Shown here piece after piece: positions 124-9,363 of a stretch of DNA of 24,151 nt; position 1 is the stretch's first letter, and each line of letters opens with the position of its first letter. The DNA lies in IMG/VR virus record IMGVR_UViG_3300009701_000002, positions 1 to 24,151 of that record; one strand, given 5' to 3'. The stretch comes from a virus. The position numbers and the translations under genes are program-made. Below the pieces are notes generated by a model. The model was not told the origin of the DNA. It did not search any database and saw nothing but the letters and a program-made list of their open reading frames with translations.

Positions 124-523
124 ACAATTCTTTGTAATCTTTGGCGTAGGGGGCGTGGGCATAGGCCCAGAAGGAGCCATAACCGACGGCGCCACATACG
201 GCGCAAATTGCGGCGAAATATATGGCTTCCTCCGATGCCACCCTGATACTATTCGAATCAGAAAGGTAAGAACCGCGCGGCAAGTAAGAATCATAATGGT
301 GGCGGGCGAAGAAAAAGGCTTTTTGTAATTCTTCTTTTGTAGATTGGCCTTTAATATAGCGCTCTACGACTTCGAGAGTTTTAATTACAATTTTATTTAT
401 TTCTTCATCTTTTGATTTTTCTAGCCAATATCTTGATATTTTTACAAGCCATTTCCTATTCTGGTTTTCGCTCAGGTCGTAAGCATTGTATAGTTCTTTT
501 AAAGTCATTTTTTTGTGGTTCAT
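65..523 (-). CDS. Hypervariable-core paralog P1 (152 aa), unknown function
   Basis: Shares an N-terminal block (LKELYxAYDLSENQxRKWLVK...ERYIKGQxTKEEL) and a C-terminal block (YKELLLEVINEMDEFEREIRRK) with five other ORFs. ATG 521-523 overlaps the upstream stop as ATGA. GAGG Shine-Dalgarno (SD) upstream. Confidence 0.85.
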   Translation of the reverse strand: MNHKKMTLKELYNAYDLSENQNRKWLVKISRYWLEKSKDEEINKIVIKTLEVVERYIKGQSTKEELQKAFFFARHHYDSYLPRGSYLSDSNSIRVASEEAIYFAAICAVCGAVGYGSFWAYAHAPYAKDYKELLLEVINEMDEFEREIRRKT

Positions 524-1671
524 GGTTTGACCTCTATGTTAATGGAACTGCCCCAAGACACTGGGGGTTTTTGAGTGCCAACTATAGCCCATAGAACAGG
601 ATAATTGGGACGTTTAATTTCTTCATTATCATAGCAGTCCATATCACCAAAATAGATTAATCCGTCTATAGCAATTCTTTGCTTATTAAACCAATCAAAA
701 GCTGGCTGGTAAGCCGTACCGCCCCTTCCTTTAATACTATACTTTTTCTTAGGATCAAATACGTAGCTATTCTTAACTTCGGCGTCCGCTTCCACGACTG
801 TCACTGTGGCGTATTTAGCTATTTCCGCGATTTCTGACATAAATTGGGTTAAAGCCTCGTCTGATACGCTTCCAGATGTGTCTATAGCAACTCCTAATTT
901 CAACCTTTCGATTTTTATATCACCGGGGATTGAAATGCCATATCTCCTGTTGCGCTTTTTTCTAGAGCTTTCAATGAAATATTCGACTTGTCTAGCTACG
1001 AAGCGCTTTAATTCTGCTCTCCAATCACGCGACGAGGCGTTTAACTTGGATACTAACAGCTCGTCATCACTACTCATTTTTCCAGCGCTTCTTGTGTTTT
1101 GGGCGGCCTCGTTAACCGCGTTTCTAATCTTTTGCCGCAAAGCATCAGTACTTTCTTCGGAATCGTCCCACAAGGGATGGCCGTCGTAGTCAGACCAATC
1201 TTTTGCTTTTTTGGATTTCTTTAAATTTTCATGATACCATTCCATGGTTTCCCCGTCGGGTAAGTCATAGAGAGCGGGCATTACAGCGAGAGAAGGAATA
1301 TTTGGAATACCGGGGTTAATGGAAAGATCACAGGCGACATTTATGAAGCGGTGTTTCATATTGTCAATCACGGCATCAGCCAGGTCTCTTTTTTTAGAAG
1401 AATATACATCGGGGGCTACTTCCCTTGAACGCGGTATATGATCGTGTAATATATGCTGGCATTCGTGTTTAAGAACAGCTACTTGCTCGGCGGGGGTTAA
1501 TTTATCAAAAAACTCCAAATTTACAAATAATTCTATTCGGTCTTTAATTCTTACGCCCGCCGTGTCAATAGATTTCGTTATTTTACGGTCCATTTGCATG
1601 ATAAGTTCACCATAGAAACGTTCCGATTCAAAAAGTCTAAGAATAGCTTTTGTAAGTGAATCTGCGCTCAT
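520..1671 (-). CDS. VWA-domain protein with an N-terminal HExxH metallopeptidase-like domain (DUF2201-like architecture)
   Basis: HECQHILHDH (HExxH) in the N-terminal half. MIDAS-like motif GVAIDTSGSVS in the C-terminal half. AAGGAG SD. ATGA overlaps at both ends. Confidence 0.8.
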   Translation of the reverse strand: MSADSLTKAILRLFESERFYGELIMQMDRKITKSIDTAGVRIKDRIELFVNLEFFDKLTPAEQVAVLKHECQHILHDHIPRSREVAPDVYSSKKRDLADAVIDNMKHRFINVACDLSINPGIPNIPSLAVMPALYDLPDGETMEWYHENLKKSKKAKDWSDYDGHPLWDDSEESTDALRQKIRNAVNEAAQNTRSAGKMSSDDELLVSKLNASSRDWRAELKRFVARQVEYFIESSRKKRNRRYGISIPGDIKIERLKLGVAIDTSGSVSDEALTQFMSEIAEIAKYATVTVVEADAEVKNSYVFDPKKKYSIKGRGGTAYQPAFDWFNKQRIAIDGLIYFGDMDCYDNEEIKRPNYPVLWAIVGTQKPPVSWGSSINIEVKP

Positions 1672-6026: not shown

Positions 6027-6167
6027 CTAGGAAACTTTAACTTTTTTAGTAGAAATATTTTTATTGTCTAAATCTGGGAATTTCTCTAAAGACCTACGAC
6101 GGCAGTTGCAATCTGGTAGTTTTGAATTGCACCGTGGGTAGATGCAGGAGTTTTTATTAGAGTTCAT
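6027..6167 (-). CDS. Small Cys-rich ORF (46 aa; MNSNKNSCIYPRCNSKLPDCNCRRRS...), not in the ORF track
   Basis: Hand translation. ATG overlaps the stop of P3 as ATGA. Four Cys in CxxxxC...CxC spacing. Confidence 0.45.
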   Translation of the reverse strand: MNSNKNSCIYPRCNSKLPDCNCRRRSLEKFPDLDNKNISTKKVKVS

Positions 6168-6583
6168 ATTTTTCTCCTTATTGTACGTTCAAACTCATCC
6201 ATTTCGTTAATCACTTCTAATAACAATTCTTTATAATCACTGGCACAGTAGGAATGATTCGTACGGCAATAACAGGAAACGGCGAAAGCAAGGTCACTGT
6301 TGTCAAGCGTGGCACATTCCGAAAGGCGGGAGGCGCCAGCGATGTTCAAGTCGTAGGAGCTGGAGGCCTCATGGTAAACTAATAGTAATTCTTCTTTTGC
6401 GGCTTCGCCTCTGATGTATTTCTCTACGATTTCTAGATTTTTATTTATAATTTTATTTATTTGTTCATCTTTTGATTGTTTTAGCCAATGTCTTGTTGTT
6501 TTTACAAGAAATTTCCTTTGTTGTTTTTCGGTTAGGTCGTAAGCCTCATGGAGTTCTTTTAAAGACATGTCTTGGTCTTTCAT
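6164..6583 (-). CDS. Hypervariable-core paralog P3 (139 aa)
   Basis: Conserved termini. ATGA overlap with P4. AAGGAGAAAG SD embedded in the last codons of P4. Confidence 0.85.
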   Translation of the reverse strand: MKDQDMSLKELHEAYDLTEKQQRKFLVKTTRHWLKQSKDEQINKIINKNLEIVEKYIRGEAAKEELLLVYHEASSSYDLNIAGASRLSECATLDNSDLAFAVSCYCRTNHSYCASDYKELLLEVINEMDEFERTIRRKI

Positions 6584-7008
6584 ATCTTTCTCCTTATCTC
6601 TCGTTCAAATTCATCCATTTCGTTAATAACTTCTAATAAGAATTTTTTCGACTCGAATTGAACCCAACTGTTTGCTTTTACTATGAAACGCCAATTAGCT
6701 TCTGGAGAAAGAATTATCTCTTTTGCGGCGACGGCAAAAGCTACGCAAACGAATTCATTGCCGCGGTATCGAATGCCCTTGGCCAAGTTTCGTGCTTCTT
6801 CTAGTTCTTTTTTTGTGGATTGGCCTTTAATGTAGCGTTCTACGACTTCTAAACCTTTTGTTAAGATTTCGAGGGATTTTTTGTCTTTTACGTTTTCTAG
6901 TTCACCTTTTGCTACTTTGACAAGAAATTTTCTTAACTGGTTTTCGCTCAGGTCGTAAGCAGTGTAGAGTTCGTCTGAAGACATGTCTTGGTCTTTTTTG
7001 TTGTTCAT
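6580..7008 (-). CDS. Hypervariable-core paralog P4 (142 aa)
   Basis: Start moved to the ATG at 7006-7008 (MNNKKDQDMSS...). This matches the other paralog N-termini, and the longer ORF-track version runs into the terminator hairpin. Confidence 0.75.
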   Translation of the reverse strand: MNNKKDQDMSSDELYTAYDLSENQLRKFLVKVAKGELENVKDKKSLEILTKGLEVVERYIKGQSTKKELEEARNLAKGIRYRGNEFVCVAFAVAAKEIILSPEANWRFIVKANSWVQFESKKFLLEVINEMDEFEREIRRKI

Positions 7009-7042
7009 ATAATAATACATTACTACAGAATTATGATTATTC

Positions 7043-7075
7043 AAAATAAAAAAGCCAGGATTTTTAGTCCTGGCT
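7043..7075 (-). terminator. Rho-independent terminator after the capsid gene
   Basis: Minus-strand RNA reads AGCCAGGA-cuaaaaa-UCCUGGCU followed by UUUUUAUUUU. Confidence 0.85.
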
Positions 7076-7100
7076 CAAAATAGCTAAATTAAGCTATTAA

Positions 7101-8296
7101 TTAAGCTGATAATTGAACAACGCAGTTCCATCCCGGGGCACTACAGATGAGGTTCCCGTAATAGCCGATGCGAATCTCAAGGGCGTCGGCGTTACCAACA
7201 CGCAGTCCTTCGAGACCTTCCATTCCATACGTCAGGATATGCGGTACTTTGCCCAAGGAGCGAAGTTTCCACGTATTCATAGTAAGGAGGTACGCAGTCT
7301 GGGGAGGGCAGCTACGATCAGCCAACACGGTCACGCGACCATATGCGGACTGGAACGTAATACCTTCGAATGCGACTTCAACTTCATCGTGGTTGACTTG
7401 AACGTACTGGACTTTAGCGCCCAAAGCGTTTACAAGTGCGGCATACGATGCGAAGTCCATGATGCAAAGGTCTGGTTTTCCGCCTTCACGGTTCAAGAAT
7501 GCCAACGCGTTCGTCAGACCTTCCTCGATGGTGTAGGCCTGTGCGTTATAGCGACAGCCAGCCAAACGAGTAGGATCAGCAGAACGGTTAACGCCCCAGA
7601 ACGAGTCGTTAGCAGCAGGGCTAGTAACAGGCAACCAAGCAGCTAAGCCGCTCAAAGCGAGGTACGAGCCAGTGTTGCTAGCGCCAGTTGCCGGCAAGTC
7701 ACCAGAAACGGTGAGGTAAGCCAATCCAGTTCCGATAGCCCAGTTACCAGACAAAGTAGCAGCCGAAGCTGTTCCGTTGATTACACCGGTTGCACGGTTA
7801 ACTGCAGTGATCAGCACGGTGTCCGTCGAAGGAGCTCCACCATCAGAAGCCGAAGCAACTAACAGCATTCCAACTTCGAAAGCAACGATTTGCTGAGCGT
7901 TGGTCAAAGGAAGGGTTACACCACCGGGTGCAATACCGCCGACTTGGCTAGAAGCAGCCGAGGAAACGCCACGGGTAGCAGTACCAGAACCAAACAACTC
8001 AAAAGCGATGTTGTTAGTAATGTTACGGAAACCGCCGTCCATTTGAAGCTTAGCAGCGTCAACAAAAGCGCCTGCATTTGTCTTAGTCTGTTCCATCAAC
8101 AAGTTAGTGATAGTAACTAATTGATAGTCTTCGATTACGTACACGAAGTACGAAACAAGTGCTGTAGGCGTTTGCTGTGCTTGCGCGTTAGCAAACTGGT
8201 GAGAACGACCCTGGGGGGTTCCATACTCAAGGGGGACTGGTATGTATTTACCAGCGAACCCGTCTGGGCTTTCATTTTTTGGTACAAGGGCTAAGA
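7101..8296 (-). CDS. Major capsid protein, exon 2
   Basis: The frame stays open upstream of the ORF-track GTG (8144) to 8296 without any start codon (..FLALVPKNESPDGFAGKYIPVPLEYGTPQGRSHQFANAQAQQ..). Position after portal and scaffold, higher GC than neighbours, terminator downstream. Confidence 0.8.
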
Positions 8297-9030
8297 CAAA
8301 TTGTTATCGTGCTGGCTTTTTATCCTGCACTTCTAATGCTTAGAGAGCTTTATTAGACTTTCGTCTATTTTGCTCGACAGTTAAATACTGTAAGTTCCAA
8401 GGAACATGCAGACCTTTAACGTTCTTTCCTTGAAGCGGTATAATATGATCTACTTCACAGCCTTCTGGACAATTGATATAGATTAATTCCATATCTCTGA
8501 GTTGTGTTTCAGATAGCCAGTAAGGAGTAGCATTCAGCTTAGCGGCTTGGTACTTTCGGGTTTTAGCTAATACTTTTTTATTATTAGCTTTATTCCAATT
8601 TGACTTACTATTTTTTACGGCTTGGGGGTTTTCTTTGACGTACTTGTCTTTGAGTGCCTTTGATCGCTCTGGATTCTTTTGTCTCCAAGCTGTTCCGTAT
8701 TTTTTAAGTCTACCTTGCTCGTTTTTGCATGCCTTACACCAACTGTTAAGCCCATTTAGATTTCTAGCGTCTTTCGAAAAATCGCTAAATTCTTTAGACT
8801 TTGTGCATTTAGTGCAAGTTTTCATACCCTTCTTCGCATTAGTTCGGCGTACATTTTCAACTCGTAAAAGTTGCCTACCACTCTTGGTACTATTTTATTC
8901 TAGCATTATCCCTGCTAGGTTCAAGTACTACGCTCTACACTGGTACAGTCTTATTATGGACCATACTTAGCACGGTATTAGCATTTCAGCCTTCACCGTT
9001 TTTGGTTGGTTTTAAATCCCCGCTTAATCC
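8297..9030 (-). mobile_element. Group I-like self-splicing intron (734 nt) carrying an HNH homing endonuclease ORF
   Basis: - P1 helix: exon AAAUCCCU (9038-9031) pairs with intron GGGGAUUU (9021-9014), with a G-U wobble at the splice-site U.
- The intron ends in G (8297).
- Joining the exons restores the frame: ..KENP-F-LALVPK.
- A 7-bp helix, CUAAUGC (8842-8836) with GCAUUAG (8339-8333), loops out the ORF. Confidence 0.75.
8340..8825 (-). CDS. HNH homing endonuclease (161 aa)
   Basis: N-terminal CxxC...CxxC zinc motif. C-terminal EVDHIIP...HVPWNLQYLTVEQNRRKSNK (the H-N-N/H core). Has its own SD (GAAGAAGGG). Confidence 0.85.
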   Translation of the reverse strand: MKTCTKCTKSKEFSDFSKDARNLNGLNSWCKACKNEQGRLKKYGTAWRQKNPERSKALKDKYVKENPQAVKNSKSNWNKANNKKVLAKTRKYQAAKLNATPYWLSETQLRDMELIYINCPEGCEVDHIIPLQGKNVKGLHVPWNLQYLTVEQNRRKSNKAL

Positions 9031-9181
9031 AGGGATTTTCCTTGTAAACAAGGTCCTTCATATATTCTTTCATGATATCAAGGACTTACAAGAAAAGACG
9101 ACAAAGAATTTAAATATCGTCTGTATACAATTCTTTTAACGCAGCGATTTGGTTCGCTGAGTTGGCATATGTTGCAGCCAT
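9031..9181 (-). CDS. Major capsid protein, exon 1. It is interrupted by in-frame TAA codons at 9110-9112 and 9086-9088, and the start is unresolved between ATG 9181 and ATG 9073.
   Basis: The ATG at 9179-9181 has AGGAG plus 8 nt upstream (MAATYANSANQIAALKELYTDDI*). In the same frame, 9073-9031 encodes MKEYMKDLVYKENP before the 5' splice site. Confidence 0.55.
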
Positions 9182-9363
9182 TTGGCTACTCCTATATTAA
9201 AATTAACTGAGATATGTCGACATGACATATTTGTCAGGTTCCTTAAATTCTTACGATGAGTGCCCAGGTCGTGGGTCTAGCATCCAAATCAAGGACTCCA
9301 ATGCCGAAGCAAGGGAGGGGGTTAATTCACCGATTGCTAATACTATGCGGTAAACGCCGAAGC

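Follow-up and report, generated by a model that had tools for sequence, protein, structure and literature searches.

Two intervening sequences in a phage major capsid gene: a group I intron and a 45-nt insert with group I splice signals and no catalytic core

The DNA analysed here, called the window, is a stretch of 24,151 nucleotides (nt) covering positions 1 to 24,151 of the IMG/VR virus record IMGVR_UViG_3300009701_000002, and the subject of the analysis is its major capsid gene, which, like all genes of the capsid region, lies on the minus strand. A sequence-only reading of the same DNA had proposed that this gene is split by a group I-like intron carrying an HNH homing endonuclease. In agreement with that proposal, the frame encoding the C-terminal 398 residues of the capsid protein is open from 8303/8296 to the stop at 7101, and its translation confirms that the first in-frame start is GTG 8144, with none in the 50 codons before it. 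The upstream coding piece terminates in ...KDLVYKENP, with CCCT at 9031. The proposal had placed this end correctly (..MKDLVYKENP, ending at 9031) and was mistaken in treating the N-terminal region as a single piece, having overlooked the ATG at 9181 and a 45-nt insert at 9115-9071. This ATG, preceded by a good ribosome-binding site, is the capsid start, and the 22 extra N-terminal residues that follow it run to GAT at 9116. The locus is best explained as a major capsid gene extending from 9181 to 7101 (minus strand) in three exons and two intervening sequences, and it is likely, in our assessment, that the latter are a group I intron and a core-less mini-intron removed by the full-length intron on the same transcript. 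The features, all on the minus strand and in order of transcription, are as follows:

9116..9181, minus: capsid exon 1, from ATG 9181, 22 codons (MAATYANSANQIAALKELYTDD) ending in GAU; defined by translation, identical homologue N-termini and DNA alignment with loci L001 and L002
9071..9115, minus: mini-intron-like insert of 45 nt, in frame, with stops TAA 9112-9110 and TAA 9091-9089 and last base G 9071
9031..9070, minus: capsid exon 2, a 40-nt mini-exon encoding KEYMKDLVYKENP plus the first base of Phe36; 9070-9064 pairs with the P10 part of the mini-intron, and 9038-9031 is the P1 exon strand of the large intron
8297..9030, minus: group I intron of 734 nt, supported by the homologue-alignment junction, the family alignment with its pair counts and covariance model R1
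8340..8825, minus: nuclease open reading frame (ORF) of 161 amino acids (aa), in the P9 loop of the large intron, bracketed by CUAAUGC (8842-8836) and GCAUUAG (8339-8333)
7101..8296, minus: capsid exon 3, from the last two bases of the Phe36 codon to the stop at 7103-7101

The boundaries of both inserts are fixed by comparison with uninterrupted genes. The three exons sum to 1302 nt, encoding 433 aa plus a stop, equal to the length of the homologues (432-433 aa), and the conceptually joined protein, which matches Pfam SU10_MCP and the PHROG major head protein family, retrieves more than 2,600 relatives, the best of them 432-433 aa long with ~94% identity over 100% of the query. Intron-less homologues read MAAxYANSxNQIAALKELYTDD-KEYMKDLVYKENP-FLALVPKNESPDGFAGKY, and in those of 433 aa the string KENP-F-LALVPK spans the proposed junction exactly, so that the in-frame ligation ..KENP|F| foreseen by the sequence-only reading, and the KENPFLALVPK junction by which it could be judged, restore the protein of the homologues. 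Alignment with the DNA of the intron-less loci L001 and L002 places the 734-nt insert precisely between CCCT and TC, and hence U is the last base of the 5' exon, G (position 8297, as had been predicted) is that of the insert, and ligation restores the Phe codon. The same alignment reveals an exact 45-nt gap at 9115-9071, between Asp22 and Lys23; a capsid mRNA from which only the large intron had been removed would still not encode the full capsid protein. Capsid genes with the same interrupted arrangement recur in many near-complete contigs of 55-59 kb. Among cultured phages, megablast of the region gave no match, and no cultured relative emerged when the capsid protein was compared by tblastn with 50,697 phage records (INPHARED).

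By every sequence-level criterion that could be tested, identification of the 734-nt insert as a group I intron is supported. The end of exon 2, AAAUCCCU (9038-9031), is complementary to intron GGGGAUUU (9021-9014), with a U.G pair at the junction; this is the P1 helix of the earlier reading. The architecture as a whole goes beyond chance, recurring with compensatory changes in dozens of related introns. The P10-like pairing, in which intron UUAAG (9027-9023) is able to pair with exon CUUAG (8295-8291), is likewise present, and the CUAAUGC and GCAUUAG strands held to loop out the nuclease ORF correspond to P9. The elements of the intron, all on the minus strand, are:

9027-9023, minus: P10 part
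9021-9014, minus: guide (internal guide sequence)
9009-9004 and 8879-8874, minus: P3
8999-8994 and 8977-8972, minus: P4
8991-8989 and 8982-8980, minus: P5
8966-8959 and 8950-8943, minus: P6
8933-8929 and 8851-8847, minus: P7
8928-8924 and 8891-8887, minus: P7.1
8918-8913 and 8905-8900, minus: P7.1a
8873-8869 and 8862-8858, minus: P8
8842-8836 and 8339-8333, minus: P9
8330-8324 and 8315-8309, minus: P9.1
8297, minus: terminal G

In this topology P4-P6 are nested within P3, P8 lies between the 3' strands of P3 and P7, and P7 crosses P3 to form a pseudoknot. The P7.1/P7.1a hairpin between P7 and the 3' strand of P3 is an IA-type feature, and the architecture is IA-like. Two of the stems offered as examples in the sequence-only reading have a place in this core, CUAGCA/UGCUAG as P7.1a and CAACU/AGUUG as P8; the third, UACCA-AGAG-UGGUA, is not a helix, UACC and UGGUAGG being the 3' strands of P7.1 and P3, respectively. 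Covariance model R1 matches the site with 156 bits (E = 5.5e-38), its sole match in the window. The intron is expected to self-splice in a guanosine-dependent manner: with guide GGGGAUUU paired to exon end AAAUCCCU, free guanosine would attack at the U.G site, and the exons, aligned by P10, would then be ligated after the terminal G at 8297.

The core is shared by a broad family. A 24-nt core motif, GGTGAAGGCTGAAAYGCTAATACC, common to the window and to its relatives L004 and L005, was found in 35 viral contigs, many of the copies lacking an ORF. An alignment of 31 members supports P3, P4, P5, P6, P7, P7.1, P7.1a and P8, with 95.4% of pair cells paired, as against 67% in shuffles and 31-42% with slid partners. 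Extraction of these 31 members had used P7 complementarity, and the test was repeated with a covariance model lacking P7, searched on 69 loci, with P7 added back for counting. The 81 matches comprise 73 distinct sequences, among which pairing holds in 94.6% of pair cells (shuffles, 65%; slid controls, 32-42%) and changes on both sides are seen at 36 of the 40 pairs; P7, absent from the aligning model, is 95% paired and includes two covarying pairs (C-G/A-U and G-C/A-U/C-G). With its pseudoknotted P3/P7 core covarying across 73 distinct sequences, the group I reading stands, and the earlier account was incomplete rather than wrong. The Rfam group I model RF00028, run with Infernal as that account had suggested, does not match the large intron at its gathering score, or at E <= 10 on 8150-9300, and has no match in the ORF-less relatives either; the family covariance model also matches the intron of L109, which RF00028 does recognise, and non-detection of the family looks like a gap in curated group I coverage. 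Copies missed by RF00028 include ORF-less ones of ~250 nt in L084, L085, L096, L097, L099, L101, L114, L115 and L117. For this family, blastn of the intron 5' part against cultured phages returned weak, unannotated matches only, and a core-motif scan of a genome collection returned two matches only.

At eight or more different insertion sites the family guide is complementary to the exon found there, with compensatory changes. Exon ends and their guides include:

Exon end AAAUCCCU (window), guide GGGGAUUU
Exon end AUUUGGU, guide GCCAAAU
Exon end AUCUGGU, guide GCCAGAU
Exon end CUUGAGU, guide GCUCAAG
Exon end ACAUCCCU, guide GGGGAUGU
Exon end UAUACGGU, guide GCCGUAUA
Exon end UCACGGU, guide GCCGUGA
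Exon end AGAUGGGU, guide GCCCAUCU

Compensatory changes are seen on comparing AUUUGGU/GCCAAAU with AUCUGGU/GCCAGAU, and UUACGGU/GCCGUAA with UCACGGU/GCCGUGA. The closest relative of the window core, in L005, is 85% identical and sits 17 nt upstream with a different guide, which indicates that the intron has moved between neighbouring sites. Presence and absence are polymorphic, 50 of 80 related capsid genes being uninterrupted. The hot spot of insertion in this capsid family is the first 60 codons, where full-length introns of one family follow residues 15, 26, 30, 36, 46-56 and 59; further full-length introns lie near residues 123, 311, 347 and 407 (loci L004-L329), and a single capsid gene can hold up to four interruptions (47, 870, 616 and 216 nt in L296). 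Outside the capsid gene, several contigs carry two to four tandem family introns within a few hundred bases (L087 8022-8510, L090 850-2390, L097 596-1031 and L116 3470-4680). Taken alone, the large intron is an ordinary, neat case of a family that is widespread in phages.

The ORF within P9 shows, in translation, an N-terminal CxxC...CxxC region and a C-terminal DH..P...N...N His-Me (HNH-type) motif, and matches phrog_1035 'endonuclease VII' (7.5e-20) and phrog_2255 'HNH endonuclease' (3.4e-5). The HNH assignment of the sequence-only reading agrees with these PHROGs and falls short in Pfam, where HNH (PF01844) scores 10.5 bits, below the 21.4 cut-off (E = 0.74); a sequence search of solved structures found no relative. 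The protein has 153 relatives in IMG/VR, the closest of which (L004 and L005; 57-59% identity) occupy the same capsid gene and intron family, with similar non-coding parts. Presumably it is this nuclease that promotes homing of the intron into capsid alleles lacking it. Elsewhere in the window, at 520-1671 (minus), is another nuclease gene, free-standing and unrelated to the intron ORF, encoding 383 aa (phrog_1314 'HNH endonuclease', E = 5e-59).

The 45-nt insert reads ATT TAA ATT CTT TGT CGT CTT TTC TTG TAA GTC CTT GAT ATC ATG, followed by AAA GAA (Lys23), and sits 40 nt upstream of the large intron. Its splice-site signals are:

9109-9103 and 9102-9096, minus: mini-intron guide, P10 part AUUCUUU followed by P1 part GUCGUCU
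9116..9122, minus: 5' exon strand of mini-intron P1, AGACGAU, with U 9116 pairing to G 9102

The guide AUUCUUU-GUCGUCU pairs with AGACGAU and AAAGAAU in seven plus seven contiguous pairs spanning the ligated junction, a total of 14 that is reached by 0.15% of shuffles, and it has the P1/P10 layout of group I internal guides, which the large intron also shows. The fold of the insert has z = -4.6, and its tail (~9093-9076) forms a duplex of -17.5 kcal/mol (z = -4.1) with the downstream exon. The catalytic core (P3-P8, with the P7 guanosine pocket) is absent, 15-25 nt remaining after the guide and pairing with the 3' exon; lacking a core, the insert is not a self-sufficient group I intron. Scanned de novo for other mini-intron signatures, the window gave 33 matches against ~20 in shuffles, a result that does not discriminate; the best other match, at 3737-3680, lies inside an intact ORF and was set aside as chance.

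Pattern scans of IMG/VR and metagenomes, together with the survey of 80 related capsid loci, which are phylogenetically related so that counts overstate independence, yielded 28 distinct short inserts, which measure 30-59 nt and occupy eight sites, after residues 22, 28, 30, 31, 34, 46, 51 and 414 (sites aa22 to aa414). In all 28 the 5' exon ends in U and the last base of the insert is G; a guide lies 8-16 bases into the insert, its 3' part pairing with the 5' exon end (U opposite G) and its adjacent 5' part with the first 4-7 bases of the 3' exon; and an in-frame stop occurs within one to five codons. At site aa22, 12 further copies (13 in all) carry covarying pairs: the seventh P1 pair (alignment columns 12/41) is A-U in 7, C-G in 3, G-C in 1 and G.U in 1 of 12 of the 13 copies, and a change of Lys23 from AAA to AAG is matched by a guide change from CUUU to CCUU (CUUU/AAAG to CCUU/AAGG). 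At aa31, exons starting AUAAGG, ACAAGG, AUAAA and ACAAA face guides CCUUAU, CCUUGU, UUUAU and UUUGU, and exons GAUCUCG and GACCUCG face CGAGAU and CGAGG. These compensatory changes indicate that the pairing of the mini-inserts is maintained. Insert lengths leave remainders of 0, 1 and 2 on division by three in 10, 8 and 10 cases, and eight inserts fall within a Tyr codon (U|AU or U|AC), which can be made whole only by ligation of the RNA. In many inserts the tail is paired with 3' exon sequence lying 5-25 nt downstream; in about a third such pairing is weak. The pattern GACGATN{3,14}CTTTGTCGTC proved too unspecific, with no new true copies among the matches listed, and an element at aa46 in L305, first taken for a full-length intron, proved to be another mini-insert, of 56 nt. 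The 3' ends of mini-inserts are alike across sites, UUGAUAU(N)1-3UG (window 9080-9071; L288, L305, L319), and resemble the GAUAAC(A)...UUG end of full-length introns, which could reflect common descent or a shared recognition element.

The distribution of the mini-inserts bears on what might remove them. Among the surveyed capsid genes, at least 19 of the 30 with a large intron contain them, whereas the 50 uninterrupted genes have none (Fisher test, ~5e-11, on loci that are not independent). Every copy from the metagenome scans whose contig reaches far enough has a large intron downstream. Mini-insert and large intron are separated by 23 nt to ~300 nt; in L319, with its mini-insert at aa414, the large introns lie upstream instead. 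Within the window the sole intron of the family is the one 40 nt downstream of the mini-insert. Since 30-59 nt cannot hold a group I core and the mini-inserts co-occur with large introns, it is proposed that the active site of a full-length intron acts on their P1 hairpin and terminal G. The 45-nt insert is accordingly best read as a core-less group I mini-intron that would be spliced with its neighbour's ribozyme. Its P1 hairpin (AGACGAU/GUCGUCU, with U.G), P10 (AUUCUUU), terminal G and tail-exon pairing would constitute the features of a group I substrate only, and the same two transesterifications would take place in the active site of the full-length intron, here 40 nt downstream, acting in cis or after its own release. 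Group I cores recognise the shape of P1 and its wobble pair rather than its sequence. Engineered group I ribozymes can also excise a separate intron in trans (PMC4094466), and for both reasons the helper step is plausible. The more general proposition, that phage capsid genes hold non-autonomous group I introns of 30-59 nt with P1, P10 and terminal G only, spliced by a full-length intron on the same transcript, and that these, the smallest known introns of group I type, provide the first example in nature of one group I core serving another intervening sequence, is one that we regard as evenly balanced between true and false. The literature searched, an incomplete set, describes neither core-less group I-type phage inserts nor natural helper-dependent group I splicing.

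Several points weigh against the two-intron reading. Splicing of either insert is deduced from sequence, RF00028 does not recognise the large intron, and the sequence does not point to a particular catalyst for the mini-intron. Co-occurrence of mini-inserts and large introns could reflect shared history or co-conversion, not dependence. Eleven of the 13 copies at aa22 were retrieved by a pattern fixing CTTTGTCGTC and AAAGAR, and the invariance there is in part a product of that pattern. No mini-intron site was found to be occupied exactly by a full-length intron, the full-length sites near aa30 being 1-2 nt away, and a search of IMG/VR gave no full-length intron in which the aa22 guide, CTTTGTCGTC, leads into the core motif, which leaves an origin of mini-introns by internal deletion plausible and unproven. 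For the single copy in the window, the GAU..GAU pair and the AUG at the insert end make translational bypass or restart formally possible.

If the mini-insert is an intron, it might splice without a helper, its minimal active site being built by pairing with the 3' exon, as claimed for fungal introns in ribosomal DNA (rDNA). Fungal introns of the PaSSU type, for which splicing in vitro is reported, retain P1, P10 and base pairing of their middle part with the 3' exon (PMC3160393), and the tails of many phage mini-inserts likewise pair with the 3' exon. The phage inserts are shorter, however, and have no P7-like guanosine pocket; the weakness of the tail pairing in about a third of them, and the fact that they are never seen in a capsid gene lacking a full-length intron, also argue against autonomy, which we consider unlikely. 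It is very unlikely that the insert instead splits the gene, translation stopping at TAA 9112-9110 and restarting at AUG 9073 to give a 23-aa peptide and a capsid protein without its first 22 residues (N-terminus MKEYMK). The window insert does end with an AUG in frame with exon 2, and 17 of the 28 inserts have an in-frame NUG before the next exon, but such endings are expected from the ...UG 3' end of the intron family, and no Shine-Dalgarno sequence precedes the NUGs, whereas the true start has one. The L092 insert, moreover, has ACG at its end, an in-frame start is lacking in all nine inserts at aa30, aa31 and aa414 (eight of which split a codon), and the insert at aa414 would leave a C-terminal fragment of 19 aa; the first 22 codons, finally, are conserved in insert-bearing genomes, with mostly synonymous differences.

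A highly improbable alternative is ribosomal bypassing of the T4 gene 60 type, with take-off at GAU (9118-9116), or at AUU before UAA, and landing at GAU AUC (9079-9074), to give ...TDD-IM-KEYMK... (ELYTDDIMKEYMK). The GAUAU repeat at both ends of the window insert, the stop one codon after GAU and a hairpin including the take-off codons would all suit such a mechanism, as would the nearby nuclease gene, given that MobA adjoins the gene 60 gap (bioRxiv 10.1101/2022.08.31.505936). A matched codon pair is nonetheless found in only 7 of the 28 inserts, the conserved Tyr cannot be restored in the eight that split its codon, the extra Ile-Met is absent from the homologues, and a guide complementary to both exon ends, its compensatory changes and the invariant terminal G would go unexplained. 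As general explanations of the mini-inserts, bypass and restart were both rejected on the matched codons (7 of 28), the split codons and the starts missing at aa30, aa31 and aa414. The idea that the 734-nt insert is itself unspliced, a free-standing nuclease gene having split the capsid gene or the genome being defective, draws on the lack of an Rfam match and is scarcely credible given an exon 3 with no start codon for 50 codons, non-coding parts that form a covariation-supported group I core, and recurrence of the arrangement across many near-complete contigs of 55-59 kb.

A probable intrinsic terminator, consisting of a G+C-rich hairpin and the T run that follows it (GCCAGGACTAAAAATCCTGGCTTTTTT), lies at 7045-7085 (minus), immediately past the capsid stop. 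Close by on the downstream side of the capsid gene, two adjacent, overlapping and paralogous ORFs at 6164-6583 and 6580-7044 (minus; 139 and 154 aa) both begin ...KDQDMS.ELxxAYDLxExQxRKFLVK and both finish LLEVINEMDEFERxIRRKI, and represent a tandem duplication of a small gene of unassigned function.

The large intron explains why a gene caller would truncate the capsid gene, as the sequence-only reading had anticipated, and reveals a widespread phage intron family that escapes the Rfam group I model. Should the mini-introns be spliced in the way their signals indicate, the active site of a group I intron would accept a substrate that brings its own guide and no core, and the minimal RNA recognised as a group I substrate would become testable. 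The same outcome would show how an intron can degenerate while the essential gene around it survives, would imply that a short insert with stops in a metagenomic phage gene is not necessarily the scar of a pseudogene, and would offer a spliceable cassette of 30-50 nt for engineering.

The T4 td, nrdB and sunY introns and those of the SPO1 type are phage group I introns that carry homing endonuclease genes. The window intron resembles phage group I introns in its P1 with U.G, its terminal G, its P3-P9 core, the nuclease ORF in a peripheral loop, the early in-frame stops and presence/absence polymorphism of its family, and a P7.1 as in subgroup IA; it differs from known ones in that its family is undetected by RF00028 and occupies at least 10 sites within the first 60 codons of one capsid family with no cultured INPHARED relative. 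Introns in phage structural genes are, as the sequence-only reading held, known: they have been described in capsid and tail genes of Cluster J mycobacteriophages (PMC3706429). The closest parallels in size are the degenerate group I introns of fungal nuclear rDNA (Phialophora PaSSU and relatives), which measure 56-81 nt (PMC3160393). The phage mini-inserts share with them a length far below normal intron size and the presence of P1, P10 and tail/exon pairing, but whereas the PaSSU-type introns have a P7-like pocket, end in U, reside in ribosomal RNA and are said to self-splice (PMC3160393), the phage mini-inserts, of 30-59 nt, have no P7, end in G, interrupt a protein-coding gene and always occur together with a full-length intron. 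Like the 50-nt gap of T4 gene 60 (bioRxiv 10.1101/2022.08.31.505936), the window mini-insert is an untranslatable insert (here of 45 nt) in an essential phage gene, with an HNH-type nuclease gene adjoining and with a hairpin and a stop at its 5' end; unlike that gap, the conserved features of the phage mini-inserts are group I splice signals. As in spliceozymes (PMC4094466), one catalytic core would serve a separate intervening sequence, the difference being that the guide is on the ribozyme in spliceozymes (PMC4094466) and on the substrate in the mini-inserts. In the literature searched there is no natural group I counterpart to helping of the spliceozyme type. Non-autonomous mobile elements, such as miniature inverted-repeat transposable elements (MITEs) and the group III introns of Euglena, are stripped down and keep only the ends recognised by the machinery, and if the proposed mechanism is true the mini-introns would be natural helper-dependent introns, the ribozyme counterpart of a non-autonomous transposon.

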